A stretch of DNA of 64,000 bases from Escherichia coli O127:H6 str. E2348/69. Lineage in GTDB: Bacteria > Pseudomonadota > Gammaproteobacteria > Enterobacterales > Enterobacteriaceae. The position numbers were made by a program, and so were the translations under genes. The stretch is from the NCBI RefSeq assembly GCF_000026545.1, contig NC_011601.1; one strand, written 5' to 3'. Positions within the stretch are counted from its first letter, which is position 1, and every line of letters begins with the position of its first letter. This document shows positions 620 through 9,338 of the stretch, piece by piece. The notes beneath the pieces are model-generated. The model had not been told where the DNA came from. It saw only the letters and a list, made by a program, of their open reading frames with translations, and made no database searches.

Positions 620-910
<291 letters not shown>

Positions 911-1258
911 TGAATCTAGTTCATAAGATAAATCCGTAACACTCACTTGTTTTAACTTAATATTTTTAATAAAAAGATTAAGTTACTTCCAAATAGCTTC
1001 ATGAACTAGCTAAGAATGCGCTTCATCCAAGGCCTCCTGAAGGCGTTCGGGGATACAATTTAGGGAAGCCTCGAAATGTTGCTGCTCAGCAGCTTTTTCC
1101 ATCCAGTCCCGAAACTAGTTAGGGGTTACTCCATACATTGTTAAATGTCAAAATATTGATAAATGTTTTATAGATAACAGTAAGTTAGCCATATTTTTTC
1201 ATTGACCTTTCATTTGTGACGAAGCAAACTGACCTGAATAGTCGCATAGGGATGTCAT

Positions 1259-2359
1259 ATGATTCCTGAAATTGAACTTAGAGATATTCAGCCAAAGGGA
1301 AGCAGTGATGTCCCGTCGTCTTCGCACATTCAGACTGGATTACCGATTCCAAAAACAGTGCGGGTTCAGTTCTTTAGCCCTGACGAATGGGAGTCGTTTA
1401 CAGAGGAATGGGCAAGTTATCTCAAAAATGAATATGTTGCAGCCAGACGCTTTGGGGGTTCTGGTGATCTTGGGATAGATATTGCTGGTTTCTGTTCTGA
1501 CAAGGGATTCGAGGCGGTATGGGATAATTATCAATGCAAGCGCTATGGACATCCTCTTCGGCCTGGTGATATCTGGGTTGAAATTGGCAAGATTATTTAT
1601 TACTCATATCTTGGCAAATATACCCCTCCACGAAAGCATTTTTTTGTTTGCTCTCAGGGAATAGGAACCAGTCTTGAACAGTTGTTGAACAAGCCTACTG
1701 AGTTGAAAGAAAAATCGATTGAAAACTGGGATAATTACTGTCTCAAGGGTATCACTTCTACTGCTGAAATTCCGTTGACTGGTGCATTAAGAGCTTACCT
1801 CGACGCATTTGATTTCACTATTTTCTCATCAAAATCGATAGTTGAGCTTATCGAAATTCATGCCAGAACGGGTTTTCACTCGGTTCGCTTTGGCGGCGGG
1901 CTGCCGTATCGGCCTAATCCATCTTCTCCACCAACCATACCGACGGAAAATGAAAGCCGATACATTCGCCAGTTGCTTGATGCCTATGGAGACCATTTAG
2001 GCACAAATTTACCAGACGCTGCTTCGTTGGCGTCACACAATCAATTTCGTAGTGACTATCTTCGCCAGCGCGAACGTTTTTATCACGCAGAATCGCTAAA
2101 GAATTTTGCGCGAGATACTGTTCCTGCGGGGACATTTGATGCCTTACAGGATGAAATCTACCATGGCGTAATTGATGTCTGCGAAGATTATCACTTGAGT
2201 GGATTTGCGAGAATGAAAGAAACCATGAAGCACGCTACCACTATCGCTGTCACATCAAATCCGTTGGTCACTTCAATTAAAACACAAGATCGCCAAGGTA
2301 TATGCCATCAGTTGGCTAATGACGATCGCCTGATTTGGGTGCCAGATAATGAATCATAA
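1259..2359 (+). CDS. Mrr-like PD-(D/E)xK nuclease-domain protein; candidate effector (LmuA-like) of a Lamassu/ABC-3C-type defence operon
   Basis: 366-aa ORF; N-terminal motif RRFGGSGDLGIDIAG...WDNYQCKRY matches the Mrr-type restriction endonuclease catalytic signature (D..D...QxK); AGGGA 6 nt upstream of ATG; stop overlaps start of next ORF. Confidence 0.6.
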   Translation: MIPEIELRDIQPKGSSDVPSSSHIQTGLPIPKTVRVQFFSPDEWESFTEEWASYLKNEYVAARRFGGSGDLGIDIAGFCSDKGFEAVWDNYQCKRYGHPLRPGDIWVEIGKIIYYSYLGKYTPPRKHFFVCSQGIGTSLEQLLNKPTELKEKSIENWDNYCLKGITSTAEIPLTGALRAYLDAFDFTIFSSKSIVELIEIHARTGFHSVRFGGGLPYRPNPSSPPTIPTENESRYIRQLLDAYGDHLGTNLPDAASLASHNQFRSDYLRQRERFYHAESLKNFARDTVPAGTFDALQDEIYHGVIDVCEDYHLSGFARMKETMKHATTIAVTSNPLVTSIKTQDRQGICHQLANDDRLIWVPDNES

Positions 2360-2834
2360 AAAACATCCAGAGCCCTTTAATAGTCCTTTCGAAACCGGGA
2401 TACGTTCGCTTGCGATTCTGGTTGCAGCCTTCCCTGAGTCTTATGATTTGCAACGGCTAGTTGAAATGGATTATCTCGTTGTGCATTCCGGTGATGCTGA
2501 TGGTCCTGACAGTTTGCATGCCCCATTACCGATGCGTGCGGGCGAACTACTGGTCAGGCATGGTTTGATTGAAAAGGGATTGATGCTCATGATGAGCAGG
2601 GGGCTCGTCCAACGTGTTTCAGCCAGTGATGGGTTCAACTATCTTGCTGGGGAGCTCGCTGCACCTTTTATCTCTTCTCTTACGACTGAATATTCATGTC
2701 GACTAAAAGTTTGTGCTGAATGGGTAACTGGTGAATTTAAAGACCTGCCTACGCAGGAAATACGGAACATTACGCATCGCTTGTTTCAGCAGTGGTCGAG
2801 TCAGTTCCAGAGTATTCAGTCATCTGGAGGATGA
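2349..2834 (+). CDS. small protein, candidate middle component (LmuC-like) of the three-gene operon
   Basis: 161-aa ORF; ATG at 2349 overlaps the upstream stop (2357-2359) and its TGA (2832-2834) overlaps ATGATGATG of the next gene, implying translational coupling; no recognisable catalytic motif. Confidence 0.5.
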   Translation: MNHKKHPEPFNSPFETGIRSLAILVAAFPESYDLQRLVEMDYLVVHSGDADGPDSLHAPLPMRAGELLVRHGLIEKGLMLMMSRGLVQRVSASDGFNYLAGELAAPFISSLTTEYSCRLKVCAEWVTGEFKDLPTQEIRNITHRLFQQWSSQFQSIQSSGG

Positions 2835-4663
2835 TGATGAGCGATAATTATTTGCAGCTTAGAAAAATTTTGTTCCATGGCCAAACCAAAGAATCCGTTT
2901 TATCTTTTTCATCCGGTATTAATGTGATTTGTGGGGCTTCCGATACCGGCAAATCATTCCTGGCAGAAACTCTGGATTTTATGCTGGGTGGAACGGAGCT
3001 CAGGGAAATTACAGAATTAGCTGCTTATGCAGAAATAACTCTCGATTTTGTCACCAGTGATGGTCGAAGTTGGCGTCTTCAACGTGCAGTGACTGGCGGG
3101 AATTTCAAGTTAACTGATTTGGATGAGCCAGACTCGGAACCTATCGTGCTAAAACAGAAGTACGTTCGGGGTAAAACGGATAATATCTCCAGTTTTTTAC
3201 TTGAACAGATTGGCTTGCCGAATAAGGAGATTTTGAAAAGTAGTACCAAAGCGACGACTCAGGGACTGAGCTTCCGCAATCTGGCGAGACTTGCTCTGGT
3301 TCAGGAAGATGAAATTCAGCATAAAGGCTCTCCCTTTTGGAGTGGGCAGTTCACAACCAAAACCGCTGAACTGGCAACGGTCAAACTGCTGCTGACAGGG
3401 GGTGATGATTCTGCGGTCGTTGCAGTGAGTGGCGATGGTGTAAGCAATACGTCTCAGATTATGTTGATTGATGAGTTAATTGCGGAGTTATCCATTGAAA
3501 TTAAGGATATGGGAGAAGAGCGTGATGATCTGGCTTCCCAACTGACCCGCCTTGAACAATCTATTGAGAGTCAACGTGAATCGCTCACTGCCGCACAGCA
3601 GCAACTAGAGCAGTTATTACAACAAAGGGGACTGGCCTTTGATGAGCGAAACAAAATCCAGGGACGACTGGATGAGATATCCGAACTACTTGCCAGATTT
3701 ACACTTCTGAATGAGCATTATGTTATAGATATCAACCGTCTGAAATCCATTCAGGAGTGTGGCTTGCTCTTCATGCATATTGACGTGATTCCTTGCCCTC
3801 ATTGTGGAGCTAGTCCAGCTCACCAACACCTGGAACAAATATGTGATGGAGATGTAGATTCAATCATTACTTCAGCAACTGCCGAGATGCAAAAGACCGA
3901 ACGACTTTTGGCAGAGCTGAATTGTACAGTCAGAGATCTTGTCAGCGAAAAGCAACGCCTTGAGAAGCAATACATTGTCCATGAAGAGGATTATTTGCGT
4001 CTTGATAAAGCCATTCGGGAAACTATTGCTCCTGAAGTTGACAGTTTCAGGCACTCGTATGCTGAACTGATCGACGAACGGGCCAGTGTCCAGCAATCTA
4101 TTGATTTGTTCTCAAGATTGGACCGGCTGGAAAGCAGGAAAGTGGCATTACAAAGCGATACTCCGGTAAAAAAAGAAAAAAGTGCGGTGCAAAACGGCAT
4201 TCCAGAGTCTGTTGCCCATAGTCTGTCGTTAAAAATCTCCTCTATATTAAAAGACTGGCATTTCCCCGGAGCATGCCAGGTATTTTTTGACAAAGATACT
4301 TCGGATTTTGTAATTGATGGAAAACCTCGCGGTAGCCGGGGAAAGGGGCTACGAGCAATTACCCATGCGGCAGTCAGTGTCGGACTACTTGAGTTTTGCC
4401 AAGAAAATGGGCTATCGCATCCGGGATTCCTAGTTCTGGATTCCCCTCTACTGGCTTACTACAAACCAGAAGGTGAAGATGATGTAGCTTTGCAAGGTAC
4501 TGACTTGAAAGAGAAATTCTATGATTATCTTGTGAAGCACCATAATGAAGATAGTCAGATCCTTATTATAGAAAATCCGCATCCACCGCAAAGCATGAAT
4601 AAACAGATTACTATGACGGTATTCACTGGTAATCCTAGGGTTGGCCGTTTCGGATTGCTTTGA
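2831..4663 (+). CDS. SMC/Rad50-like ABC ATPase with central coiled-coil and CxxC hook (LmuB-like)
   Basis: N-terminal Walker A GASDTGKS (nt 2933-2956); long heptad-rich, Q/E/L-rich central region containing CPHC (nt 3794-3805); C-terminal hhhhD motif FLVLDSP (nt 4427-4447); GGAGG at 2826-2830; start chosen among ATG 2831/2834/2837 (track ORF begins 2792). Confidence 0.65.
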   Translation: MMMSDNYLQLRKILFHGQTKESVLSFSSGINVICGASDTGKSFLAETLDFMLGGTELREITELAAYAEITLDFVTSDGRSWRLQRAVTGGNFKLTDLDEPDSEPIVLKQKYVRGKTDNISSFLLEQIGLPNKEILKSSTKATTQGLSFRNLARLALVQEDEIQHKGSPFWSGQFTTKTAELATVKLLLTGGDDSAVVAVSGDGVSNTSQIMLIDELIAELSIEIKDMGEERDDLASQLTRLEQSIESQRESLTAAQQQLEQLLQQRGLAFDERNKIQGRLDEISELLARFTLLNEHYVIDINRLKSIQECGLLFMHIDVIPCPHCGASPAHQHLEQICDGDVDSIITSATAEMQKTERLLAELNCTVRDLVSEKQRLEKQYIVHEEDYLRLDKAIRETIAPEVDSFRHSYAELIDERASVQQSIDLFSRLDRLESRKVALQSDTPVKKEKSAVQNGIPESVAHSLSLKISSILKDWHFPGACQVFFDKDTSDFVIDGKPRGSRGKGLRAITHAAVSVGLLEFCQENGLSHPGFLVLDSPLLAYYKPEGEDDVALQGTDLKEKFYDYLVKHHNEDSQILIIENPHPPQSMNKQITMTVFTGNPRVGRFGLL

Positions 4664-4830
4664 TTAGGAGGATGGTTTGAATGGAAACACAATGCACAAT
4701 GTCGTGCAGTTGTTGCTGCGCACAATGGTCGTTTATGGACGAAGTTATCACTTCAGTCAAAAGAATTTTAAGTAGCTAAGCTGCGCGTTGGATAGGTAAT
4801 GAAATGACATAAACAGATATTATAGCGACC

Positions 4831-5292
4831 GTGGCATGTGCCATATCAGGGGTCGCCGCGCTATTTTCAGGAATAGCATTATGTCAATCAGCAAAAGCAA
4901 ACCGCAGAGCAAATCAGGTATCAGAGCGAGGCTTGCGTATTGATTTAGTTGATTGTCGTATGAATATACGGAATGCGTTCACGTTAATTATGGATGAGTT
5001 CGAGGCGCAGAGATACGGGCCAGCAGATAACTATATTATTCAGGCAAAAATCACCTTCCGTGATGCGGGTATATTTTTTGGTAATGACGTAAGTGAATTT
5101 CTTACCGAGTTAATGAGACAAATTAGCACCTACAGCGAGATATTTAAAACTAGGACAATGGGCCGTCTTATTTTTGACCCTCAAGGAGATGTTAGAGAGG
5201 AAGAGCAACGATTAGAACAAATAAGGCTATGGGTGATAGCACAGCGTGGGCCCGGCAATGACATGTTCGACAGAATCATGAGTGTTTCATGA
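4831..5292 (+). CDS. hypothetical protein, N-terminal hydrophobic segment; start uncertain (GTG at 4831 or internal ATG)
   Basis: 153-aa ORF with AT-rich rare codons (ata, aga, tta), followed immediately by a stem-loop plus T-tract; no motif recognised. Confidence 0.35.
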   Translation: MACAISGVAALFSGIALCQSAKANRRANQVSERGLRIDLVDCRMNIRNAFTLIMDEFEAQRYGPADNYIIQAKITFRDAGIFFGNDVSEFLTELMRQISTYSEIFKTRTMGRLIFDPQGDVREEEQRLEQIRLWVIAQRGPGNDMFDRIMSVS

Positions 5293-5302
5293 TACACGCT
5301 AG

Positions 5303-5332
5303 ACCCGGCCTCAGTGCCGGGTGTTTAATTTT
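5303..5332 (+). terminator. Rho-independent terminator-like hairpin downstream of the 153-aa ORF
   Basis: acccggc-ctcagt-gccgggt stem-loop followed by gtttaatttt. Confidence 0.45.
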
Positions 5333-5569
5333 CCTAACTACAACCGTCGCCTCACCGTCCCCCAAACGAATCGGAACAGCTGTTCCATGAACAGTCAGAT
5401 GGTGTGGCCCAAATTAGTTGCCCACTACACTTCAAGACTATAAATTCTGGAGTAACAGTCGGTTAGCTTCCTTCATGGGCCAGTCATGGCGAGTTGTTAA
5501 GTATGGCTGTTTGCGATAAGCTTTAGATACTCTTTAGCGTTGGACGGTTACGTCTAGTCGGGTGATTAG

Positions 5570-6607
<1,038 letters not shown>

Positions 6608-6681: not shown

Positions 6682-8004
6682 TTACTTAATACCGTATTCT
6701 CGGCTTAACCGACCGTGCAACCTCAACACATTGGTTTCAACTGCCGTCACCACGTTCTCCGGAAAATCTGTCGGTAATGAAGTCTTCACGTTATCCAGTG
6801 CTGCCGGAATCATTCTGGCAAAGTCACTCAGGATTTCATGCATCTGCACTTCCGGGAATTTCAGCACCTTTGCTGTCGCCAGAAAATGTCGCGGATAAAT
6901 TTTATCGATTGCCGTTTTTTTGCCTTTGGATGCGTTAAGCCCCATTGCCAGTTTGAGATCGCTGATGTGTATTCCCGTACCGCCAAGGACCGGAAATGCC
7001 GAAATGATGTCATAAAATGGTGTGAGCCGATAACTGCCGCCAGCCTGAATAAATACGGAGAAGTTTTTTGCATGGCCATCCGTTGCGCCAATCAACCACT
7101 GGAAGACCTGAAACTTCATAAAATCATAGCGATCTTTCAGCGCCTCGCTGGAGCCCATCAAAAAAGCCATAATTTGCGCGATACCGGGGCCTCCATCTGA
7201 TTCATATTTCACCGATGAAGGTAAACCGAATGTCTGGCACATATCCTCCTGTGGCAAGCGAAGTAAAACCGTTCGCTCAGTATTCCAACGCCTGTCAAAA
7301 CGTTCGACCGCTAACGCGCGCACCCTTCCCGCTTTAATGATTTCTGCGTCCGGAACATTCAACCCGAGTTCTTTCGCCAGCAGCAAACAGTAATACTCAT
7401 TATCAACGCTTTGGCTAAGATCGAGCGTCGCATTGGGCTGTCTGATTTCGCCAATCGGCAATTTGATAATGTGCGTCGTTGGCGTTATTCCCTTCGGAAT
7501 GCACCAGTCATTGCCTATTCTGAGCAGCGCAGTCTTCTCCTGTGCGCCAGCAACCGAGATGCGAAAGTCATTTTCTTCTCTAATCATGCCTAACGGGATA
7601 TCTGCTTTATAAGCCGTTAATACTTCTTCAAGTCTGGCTTCAGTAAGCTTTTCCCATGCCATTATCGGACACGTTACGGTTTCATCTTCGGGGATTAACG
7701 TCACGGCACCAACGCTGTCTCGCCCTATTTCTGACAATAAATCAAACGGTTGTCTGGATTTAGCATGATAACGTTTAACGATCCGGTCACGTACAATCGG
7801 GCTATCGGGTAACAGGTTATCGAAGAAGTTAAATACGGCATCAGAGGTGATATTCCCCCTCTGCAATGGCAGCGAAAGTGACAACGGTCTGGCATAACGG
7901 CTGGCTAACCACTCAGGTGCATACTTAAAGGTGTGCGCGCCGTTGGCTAACTTCGTTAACTCGCCTACCCGCTGGTTGTTCATCCAAGTGACTAGTTTAG
8001 GCAT
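6682..8004 (-). CDS. hipA: HipA serine/threonine kinase toxin
   Basis: 440-aa protein beginning MPKLVTWMNNQRVGELTKLANGAHTF, near-identical to remembered E. coli HipA; start overlaps hipB stop. Confidence 0.95.
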   Translation of the reverse strand: MPKLVTWMNNQRVGELTKLANGAHTFKYAPEWLASRYARPLSLSLPLQRGNITSDAVFNFFDNLLPDSPIVRDRIVKRYHAKSRQPFDLLSEIGRDSVGAVTLIPEDETVTCPIMAWEKLTEARLEEVLTAYKADIPLGMIREENDFRISVAGAQEKTALLRIGNDWCIPKGITPTTHIIKLPIGEIRQPNATLDLSQSVDNEYYCLLLAKELGLNVPDAEIIKAGRVRALAVERFDRRWNTERTVLLRLPQEDMCQTFGLPSSVKYESDGGPGIAQIMAFLMGSSEALKDRYDFMKFQVFQWLIGATDGHAKNFSVFIQAGGSYRLTPFYDIISAFPVLGGTGIHISDLKLAMGLNASKGKKTAIDKIYPRHFLATAKVLKFPEVQMHEILSDFARMIPAALDNVKTSLPTDFPENVVTAVETNVLRLHGRLSREYGIK

Positions 8005-8270
8005 CACCACTCCAGATCTTGCTGTTCTGTTGCTTCTGGCGAGGCATTTTTTGCGTCGCATAGCGTCATTGAGAGTTCAAGCGACTGTAAAATCTTAAAA
8101 AATGTCGTGAGCGAGGTATTGTCAGGATTGTTTTCGAAATTGGAAATTGTCGCCTGCTTAATGCCGATTTTTTTCGCCAACTCGCTCTGCGTCCAGCCGT
8201 TTTGCTGGCGAACCAGTTTCATTGCATTCGCCAATTGCATTGGGCTATAGATCTTCTGAAAGCTCATCAT
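8004..8270 (-). CDS. hipB: HipB antitoxin, HTH DNA-binding protein
   Basis: 88-aa protein MMSFQKIYSP...QSELAKKIGIKQATISNFEN matching HipB. Confidence 0.95.
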   Translation of the reverse strand: MMSFQKIYSPMQLANAMKLVRQQNGWTQSELAKKIGIKQATISNFENNPDNTSLTTFFKILQSLELSMTLCDAKNASPEATEQQDLEW

Positions 8271-8291
8271 GTCATACGTCCACAGCAAATT

Positions 8292-8404
8292 TATCCGCTT
8301 AAGGGGATATTATCAGTTTTATCCTTAGTGAGGATAAAGTCAATCTGGAAACACATCTTATCCGCTCTACGGGATAAACGCTGCGATATCCGCGATCGCG
8401 GATA
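8292..8404 (-). promoter_or_regulatory. hipBA promoter/operator region with four HipB operator palindromes
   Basis: TATCC-N8-GGATA-type palindromes at 8292-8309, 8320-8336 (imperfect), 8359-8376 and 8387-8404, directly upstream of hipB. Confidence 0.7.
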
Positions 8405-8576
8405 AAAAGGAGGATTTAAAAAAGCACATCCTAATGCGGTGGCTTCTTTGACTACCGGAATCTGTAATCTTAATGACCTGGCCGCGTAAAAAACGTCTGT
8501 TCAATGGGGTGATGCCGTGAGGCGAATTTATCAGTTTTATCTACAATTGGGGTAACGCGCTGACGGGAGTAAAAAA

Positions 8577-9335
8577 ATGTCTGACTGGAACCCCTCTTTA
8601 TATCTGCACTTTGCCGCTGAACGATCGCGTCCGGCAGTGGAGCTGCTTGCCAGGGTGCCGCTGGAGAATATCGAATACATTGCCGATCTTGGCTGTGGCC
8701 CAGGTAACAGCACCGCCCTTCTACACCAACGTTGGCCTGCTGCCAGGATAACGGGCATCGACTCATCTCCGGCGATGATTGCTGAAGCGCGCAGTGCTTT
8801 GCCAGACTGCCTGTTTGTGGAAGCAGATATCCGCAACTGGCAACCGGAACAGGCACTCGATCTGATTTTTGCTAATGCCTCGCTGCAATGGCTGCCCGAC
8901 CACTACGAATTGTTTCCTCATTTGGTTTCGTTACTCAGTCCGCTGGGCGTGCTGGCAGTACAGATGCCAGATAACTGGCTGGAGCCGACCCATGTGCTCA
9001 TGCGCGAAGTTGCCTGGGAACAAAACTACCCGGATCGCGGGCGTGAGCCGCTGGCTGGCGTTCATGCTTACTACGATATTCTGAGTGAAGCCGGATGTGA
9101 GGTCGATATCTGGCGAACCACTTACTATCACCAGATGCCGTCGCACCAGGCGATTATCGATTGGGTGACCGCCACTGGATTACGTCCGTGGTTACAGGAT
9201 CTGACCGAGAGCGAACAGCAGCATTTTCTTACGCGCTACCATCAGATGCTGGAAGAGCAATATCCCCTCCAGGAGAACGGACAGATATTGCTGGCATTTC
9301 CGCGTCTGTTTATTGTTGCCCGCCGTAGGGAGTAA
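8577..9335 (+). CDS. tam: trans-aconitate 2-methyltransferase
   Basis: 252-aa protein [12 protein letters not shown]...[10 protein letters not shown] (SAM-binding motif) matching Tam. Confidence 0.95.
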
Positions 9336-9338
9336 TTA

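Follow-up and report, generated by a model that had tools for sequence, protein, structure and literature searches.

The gene examined here lies in a decayed island between yneL and hipA (positions 892-6575, + strand; blastn against L006 and L002) within the window, i.e. the whole 64,000-nucleotide stretch of Escherichia coli O127:H6 str. E2348/69 that was analysed. The island carries two internal deletions relative to its intact form. Its left part is a Lamassu/ABC-3C operon (1259-4663, + strand) composed of lmuA (1259-2359), lmuC (2349-2834) and lmuB (2837-4663), identified with PADLOC, Pfam and PGAP (PADLOC scores of 2e-133 for LmuA, 1.9e-54 for LmuC and 2.3e-176 for LmuB; Pfam matches to CTD6, MC2 and AAA_23). 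Farther downstream is the remnant of an Ec78-type (type I-A) retron (5529-6061, + strand; Rfam and the PADLOC model RT_I-A), made up of an msr (5529-5593; RF00170, 79.9 bits) and a truncated reverse transcriptase (RT; 5660-6061) that halts after ∼133 aa. The ORF between them had been placed by an earlier note between a defence operon and a retron remnant, and this was borne out, with Lamassu/ABC-3C on one side and the msr and truncated type I-A RT on the other. Beyond the retron remnant are minus-strand fragments of tyrosine recombinases (6185-6607), followed by hipA, hipB, tam, yneE and uxaB.

In the intact island (MB64, wlxctx60 and L006) the Ec78-type retron is complete, with PtuA and PtuB, and intact islands are closed off by an operon that comprises three tyrosine-recombinase-fold genes and a small fourth gene of 144 aa. 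Judged by gene layout, it is this terminal recombinase trio that the island shares with GInt and SE-type elements (PMC5385486, PMC10214605), whereas in E2348/69 only fragments of the recombinase operon survive (6185-6607). GInts are reported from 7.5% of Escherichia replicons (PMC10214605). Both deletions emerge from comparing window 6047-6575 with L006 7303-14959: one took out the remainder of the RT along with ptuA, ptuB and an Xre/MbcA pair, and the other removed most of the genes for the 788-aa and 516-aa recombinase-fold proteins. The E2348/69 retron cannot work.

Several further observations concern the island and its relatives. Just beyond the recombinase remnants, at window 6576-6605, is a sequence of 24-30 bp that is also present at the L005 end (100%) and, 424 bp past the gene block, in L004 (96.7%); in this island family it probably marks the right junction or attachment site. 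At the left ends, Lamassu-type and Mokosh-type islands share 117 bp at 70% identity (window 892-1008 versus L004 2314-2428). This stretch is upstream of the first defence gene and may be a common island end or a promoter region. Directly after the lmuB stop is a small Cys-rich ORF of 32 codons (METQCTMSCSCCCAQWSFMDEVITSVKRILSS; window 4681-4779, + strand), 8-9 nt past a strong AGGAGG, which travels with Lamassu and is identical in plasmid p779-2; it may not be coding, since both of its differences from L003 are non-synonymous. In L014, from Salmonella enterica, ORFs of 410 aa and 185 aa (7830-9665) replace lmuC (161 aa) and lmuB (608 aa), and this Lamassu operon, upstream of a start-damaged copy of the gene under study, looks decayed.

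The 153-aa ORF with a GTG start that had been described earlier is present as a mechanical open frame at 4831-5292 (+ strand; ORF list), with no SD-like sequence upstream, and its N-terminus is hydrophobic as claimed (ACAISGVAALFSGIALC); the internal ATG, previously placed at 4957, is actually at 4960-4962 (Met53). Intact 162-aa homologues (P0002-P0005; 85-99% identity) define an ancestral CDS of 162 codons (MTQTDIIATVAC...SVS) plus stop at 4804-5292 (+ strand), which is interrupted at codon 3 in E2348/69. The ancestral start ATG (4804-4806, + strand) aligns with the start of these homologues, and 7 nt ahead of it is an SD-like AGGT (4794-4797, + strand; AGG at 4794-4796) that is conserved in L003, L004 and L005. 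Alignments showed that a C-to-T change at 4810 produced a TAA nonsense codon (4810-4812, + strand) where intact alleles have CAA (Gln3). CAA is found at codon 3 in plasmid p779-2, L004, L005, L006, L007 and L013 (alignment and translations), and in the MB64 and wlxctx60 genomes of E. coli the intact protein carries the accession WP_238092898.1. The PGAP annotation at the E2348/69 locus covers 100 aa only, starting at ATG 4990.

Inspection of the sequence revealed no Shine-Dalgarno ahead of GTG 4831, ATG 4960 or ATG 4990, and a scan upstream of the gene within the window found no sigma-70-like promoter. The start appears uncertain because codon 3 is a nonsense codon (TAA versus CAA). The doubt voiced in the earlier note was thus justified with respect to a GTG without SD, but the ancestral ATG at 4804 with its AGG, and the in-frame TAA at 4810-4812 that follows, had been overlooked. 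At least 90% of family members, including those at 23% identity, keep Asp5 in the N-tail, which supports ATG 4804 as the true family start and argues that the N-tail extension belongs to the protein. Given the stop at codon 3 and alternative starts that lack an SD, the E2348/69 copy is a pseudogene, dead or nearly so, and at best a weakly re-initiated, N-terminally clipped allele. Such a copy would yield at best traces of clipped protein, via SD-less re-initiation at GTG 4831; a product from this codon would be without the conserved N-tail.

Codon usage was as foreign-looking as first reported, with 8 ATA, 5 AGA, 2 AGG, 5 TTA and 2 CTA codons; together these rare codons make up 13.5% of the ORF versus 4-7% of neighbouring genes, and the GC content of the ORF is 42.5% versus 48.7% for the window. 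The terminator hairpin previously reported at 5303-5332 (+ strand) was recovered by a scan as an intrinsic-terminator-like hairpin (5303-5322) and a T-run to 5332, which close the gene block, and its stem is kept in L003, L004 and L005. In shuffled sequence, ORFs that reach 153 aa or more arose 0.05 times per island and 1.3 times per 64-kb window; length alone is weak evidence, and the case for a real gene stands on conserved homologues.

When 1.84 billion representative proteins were searched exhaustively with phmmer, full-length relatives of 157-185 aa were returned at 23-35% identity (E 3e-18 to 1e-4); with profile searches (E 1e-22 to 1e-76) the family grew to some 40 clusters, whose proteins are 157-199 aa long. 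Named members are from Escherichia, Salmonella, Enterobacter, Buttiauxella and Yokenella. Five residues are invariant across the family (I46, L48, R52, G151 and F155), and a C-terminal motif, G-x-x-x-F-x-x-x-M/I, is common to it. Nei-Gojobori dN/dS between Lamassu-type and Mokosh-type copies was 0.28-0.44, with values >1, on tiny counts, among close Lamassu-type copies. The ORF and its relatives had no family match in Pfam, PADLOC, NCBIfam or PHROGs; the earlier failure to recognise a motif therefore holds against these databases, and a conserved family exists nonetheless. From these comparisons the family appears to be undescribed, unannotated, rare and so far restricted to Enterobacterales.

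Searches outside this range returned little. A prophage-type member, compared by tblastn with 50,697 phage genomes, had no match, and a scan of IMG/VR with the family alignment gave pattern matches with zero confirmed relatives. A scan of 100,044 species-representative genomes returned one locus, an E. coli-type island on a contig labelled as a Bacillota MAG (L013; JAEYGZ010000003.1). This contig carries the E. coli island of Lamassu, gene and Ec78 retron at 98.8% identity, and its label is probably a binning error.

It had been suggested that the frame may be non-functional. For the family this is contradicted by the dN/dS range and by homologues at 23-35% identity, and for this copy it largely holds, given the codon-3 stop and SD-less starts; the E2348/69 frame represents a disabled copy of a genuine gene. 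Of the remote-homology checks proposed at the same time, sequence searches recovered full-length homologues, and a Foldseek search of BFVD gave nothing significant.

The model was built with AlphaFold2 from an eight-sequence alignment and had a mean pLDDT of 77, with a core above 90 (ten-residue blocks over residues 51-110 at 90-95). In it, a helix spanning residues 4-68 runs from a membrane segment into a compact four-helix bundle. The predicted membrane segment (codons 6-27; 4819-4884, + strand; scan of hydrophobicity and composition) is Gly/Ala/Ser/Thr-rich and marginally hydrophobic, and is followed by a basic flank, KANRRANQ; the predicted bundle (codons 46-160; 4939-5283, + strand) holds I46, L48, R52, G151 and F155. 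Among members the N-tail is 5-14 residues long and acidic with a near-invariant Asp, and the membrane segment is 53-68% Gly/Ala/Ser/Thr, has summed Hessa values of 0.2-3.0, and shows small-xxx-small spacing (S15, A19, G23). The basic juxtamembrane C-flank is a feature of the island subfamilies; flanking charges are weak in the prophage subfamily. In the island subfamilies these flanking charges, from which alone orientation was read, suggest an N-out, C-in topology, and the basic flank after the membrane segment suggests a cytoplasmic bundle. The family profile had no match below E 0.1 among PDB sequences. A four-helix bundle is a generic fold, so fold searches do not discriminate function.

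The SD, CDS and terminator together form a discrete block (4793-5358, + strand) with 91-93% identity to islands of unrelated flanks (blastn). The window shares only 4793-5358 with L004 (90.8%) and only 4793-5360 with L005 (93.5%); both have a type I Mokosh system (MkoA, E 0; MkoB, E 7.7e-147) ahead of the gene, and neither has a retron. In L016-L019, also without a retron, the same Mokosh is 95% identical until 47 nt before the start codon, after which a 173-aa allele with 35% identity appears. L020 has a third allele, 26% identical, on the upstream side of that Mokosh. Alleles of 26-35% identity are found beside flanks that are 94-95% identical. In L020 (1032-4387), mkoA has an internal deletion of ∼1.6 kb (L004 4449-6045) that leaves separate NERD and helicase genes. 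That the L020 assembly might be circular or in tandem was considered and dropped, there being no terminal overlap.

A strong terminator after mkoB is followed by a conserved non-coding leader of ∼200-350 nt (73-95% identity) containing the hairpin CGGGTAAATAATTACCCG (terminator/leader at L004 9597-10000, L016 9601-10000, L020 53-239 and L005 182-589). In Mokosh-type islands this leader precedes all three alleles, whose proteins are 26-35% identical; it has no match in Rfam and is absent from the E2348/69 window. No inverted repeats flanking the block were found in the window.

A distant subfamily is found in prophages, divergently oriented from an Erf-like gene and upstream of terminase genes. 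On a phage-like contig (L021 1823-2825), two members, P0014 (158 aa) and P0034 (177 aa), stand in tandem next to an Erf-like gene. One prophage (L011 8652-9453) has an insertion immediately behind the family gene, made up of a gene with an Ntox44 domain and a companion of 143 aa that is its probable immunity gene; the insertion shows the site to be a variable cargo slot.

Related Mokosh loci were found in about 300 E. coli genomes, where similarity to the query does not run past the mkoB stop; in two that were inspected, no family gene is annotated downstream. In complete E. coli genomes, the gene or its stump is carried by 67 of 67 records with this Lamassu allele, and a link to Lamassu thus keeps some probability, but these records are at least 99% identical and count as one lineage. 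The island contexts are likewise not independent, as they belong to one island family with flanks that are 94-99% identical. The block follows either Lamassu or Mokosh, with or without an Ec78 retron, and has relatives in prophage slots. We therefore read the gene as self-contained mobile-element cargo within GInt-like integrative defence islands, and as neither a part of the retron nor an obligate part of Mokosh or, probably, of Lamassu. Of the roles proposed in the earlier note, cargo gene is thus upheld, by a self-contained block in defence islands and prophage accessory slots. A retron-associated effector remnant is not, since the same block occurs without a retron (L004, L005, L016-L019) and other Ec78-like retrons share only 5429-5528 with the region.

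Inactivation of the gene is recurrent. The TAA allele is also present in L015, and its protein cluster comprises 98 member sequences. Insertions of 2 bp right after the ATG give ATG TGA in L003, where rescue from a GTG is possible, and ATG TAA in L014 from Salmonella. In 57 E. coli plasmids the same gene is cut by IS1 at a point corresponding to 5063-5064 (unstranded; blastn and alignment), and two other damaged forms are P0009, a fusion of IS3 type, and P0006, whose C-terminus has been replaced. In the set of complete E. coli genomes, the intact gene was found in 4, the TAA allele in 5 assemblies and the IS1 stump in 57 plasmids.

The explanation that we favour for the locus as a whole, i.e. 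a disabled copy of a genuine gene whose intact form acts at the membrane independently of its neighbours, would stand a little short of an even chance. Context and architecture suggest, as a tentative reading that is plausible rather than probable, that the protein in its intact form works alone and at the membrane as a factor for phage exclusion or abortive infection (Abi). Such a protein would sit in the inner membrane and oligomerise via the small-xxx-small motifs of its membrane helix. Phage infection would be excluded or aborted at the membrane, with genome entry blocked or the membrane depolarised, and the action would be independent of neighbouring systems. The cost of the intact protein would explain the frequent knock-outs, although frequent disruption would also be expected of any dispensable cargo gene. 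A bolder version, which we consider speculative and rather unlikely, would have a new single-gene membrane-acting exclusion/Abi module with a dedicated slot in GInt-type islands behind the conserved leader, alleles that are swapped wholesale, insertion made potential-dependent by the weakly hydrophobic anchor and the acidic tail so that phage depolarisation could be sensed, and toxicity that drives the knock-outs.

An accessory subunit or effector of the adjacent Lamassu or Mokosh, adding a membrane-damaging output as Csx28 does for Cas13b, would fit the position of the gene directly downstream of the defence operon and in the same orientation, with no convincing terminator between lmuB and the gene. 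The 67 of 67 Lamassu records that carry the gene or its stump, the three very different alleles adjoining the same Mokosh, and the Csx28-like architecture point the same way. We nevertheless hold this to be unlikely: one block accompanies two unrelated systems with breakpoints at the SD and past the terminator, a strong terminator and a separate conserved leader part the gene from mkoB, and in L020 the gene is upstream of Mokosh. Moreover, homology ends at the mkoB stop in about 300 E. coli genomes with Mokosh, the 57 plasmids keep Lamassu though IS1 cuts the gene, and prophage relatives lack such a partner. The narrower idea of a third Mokosh component was dropped on the basis of one shared island lineage, the intervening terminator and the many Mokosh loci without the gene. 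Service to the mobile element itself, as a regulator of lysis timing (SAR-type antiholin) or of induction or maintenance, seems improbable too. Here the Gly/Ala/Ser-rich, marginally hydrophobic membrane segment resembles SAR domains, the gene occurs in prophages and integrative islands alike, its position and leader are conserved within the island backbone, and synteny with Erf recurs in two prophage types. However, the islands have no lysis genes, the prophage holin and endolysin are about 8 kb off (L010), the N-tail is without the positive charge that SAR proteins usually have, charge bias would put the bundle in the cytoplasm, and the gene has been lost from islands that stay (the window and the plasmids).

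A role as an anti-defence or counter-defence protein of mobile elements is, in our judgement, very unlikely. Anti-defence genes are often found beside recombination genes such as Erf, as the prophage relatives are, and rapid allele turnover (26-35% identity beside 94-95% identical flanks) would suit this role. Against it, the chromosomal defence islands that harbour the gene have it oriented like their defence operons, the libraries searched returned no match, and known anti-defence proteins are not usually membrane-anchored. Two other readings have almost no probability left. A remnant of the retron's own effector module could account for the constant 237 nt by which the gene precedes msr in all Lamassu-type islands. 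It is already contradicted by the data, as the Ec78-type effectors PtuA and PtuB are downstream of the RT and unrelated to the gene, the gene is found without a retron, other Ec78-like retrons have only 5429-5528 in common with the region, and no PADLOC retron model matches. A chance open frame that codes nowhere would be compatible with the ∼1.3 ORFs of such length in a shuffled window, the lack of any matching database family and an E2348/69 copy without a usable start. It is already contradicted by the full-length homologues, which keep their motifs at 23-35% identity, together with a dN/dS of 0.28-0.44, a confident structure prediction, and conservation of both SD and terminator.

For annotation, the locus that RefSeq lists as a 100-aa hypothetical protein beginning at an internal Met should rather be called a pseudogene, its intact form coding for a 162-aa membrane protein, and in work on E2348/69 neither this ORF nor the adjoining truncated retron should be counted as an active defence gene. 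For defence biology, the locus brings to light a compact, unannotated family that recurs in enteric defence islands and prophages. Its distinctive anchor, cassette-exchange-like allele turnover and frequent inactivation make the family a cheap, testable candidate for a single-gene exclusion/Abi factor.

Comparison with known proteins gave few leads. Weak in-register matches were obtained to Pfam DUF6680 (E 0.009, one member) and DUF6082 (E 0.005, best of two), uncharacterised families of similar length (∼170 aa); all scores were below gathering thresholds (best 16.1 bits versus a cut-off of 23.2), and 1 to 2 of 23 members matched. A literature search on the protein accession, the locus tags and DUF6680/DUF6082 found no mention. 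Unlike the three neighbouring genes, the ORF has no PADLOC or Pfam match that would make it a Lamassu component, and PADLOC gave no match for the gene as a component of type I Mokosh or of a type I-A retron. More broadly, no homology of the family to any defence or exclusion protein was detected with PADLOC, Pfam, NCBIfam, PHROGs or hhalign against SieA and SieB.

Two comparisons concern phage lysis proteins. The N-terminal segment of the family, being 53-68% Gly/Ala/Ser/Thr and marginally hydrophobic, resembles the SAR segments that phage endolysins and the T4 RI antiholin carry, and is likewise rich in weakly hydrophobic residues. Summed Hessa values were about 0.5-0.8 for reference SAR segments and -2.5 for lambda Rz, versus 0.2-3.0 for the family. 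Unlike SAR proteins, the family has an acidic N-tail instead of a basic one, lies outside any lysis cassette and lacks an enzymatic domain; with an acidic N-tail and a basic C-flank, the predicted topology of the island subfamily is the reverse of SAR. I-spanins (Rz-like) have an N-terminal membrane helix, a periplasmic coiled coil, an embedded or adjacent lipoprotein gene and a position in the lysis cassette. This identity was rejected, as no further + strand ORF reaching 40 aa is present within 4804-5292, the predicted fold is a compact four-helix bundle, and the prophage relatives are far from holin and endolysin genes.

Csx28, a membrane-pore accessory protein of type VI-B CRISPR-Cas13b (PDB 8gi1), may be alike in architecture, with the qualification that a four-helix bundle is a generic fold. 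P22 SieA and SieB show no relationship to the family by hhalign (probabilities of 0.15% and 0.22%, respectively), but resemble it in size (SieA, 164 aa), in membrane association and as stand-alone accessory genes in non-essential slots of mobile elements. Though undescribed, the family falls into a familiar category, that of small membrane proteins carried by mobile elements.
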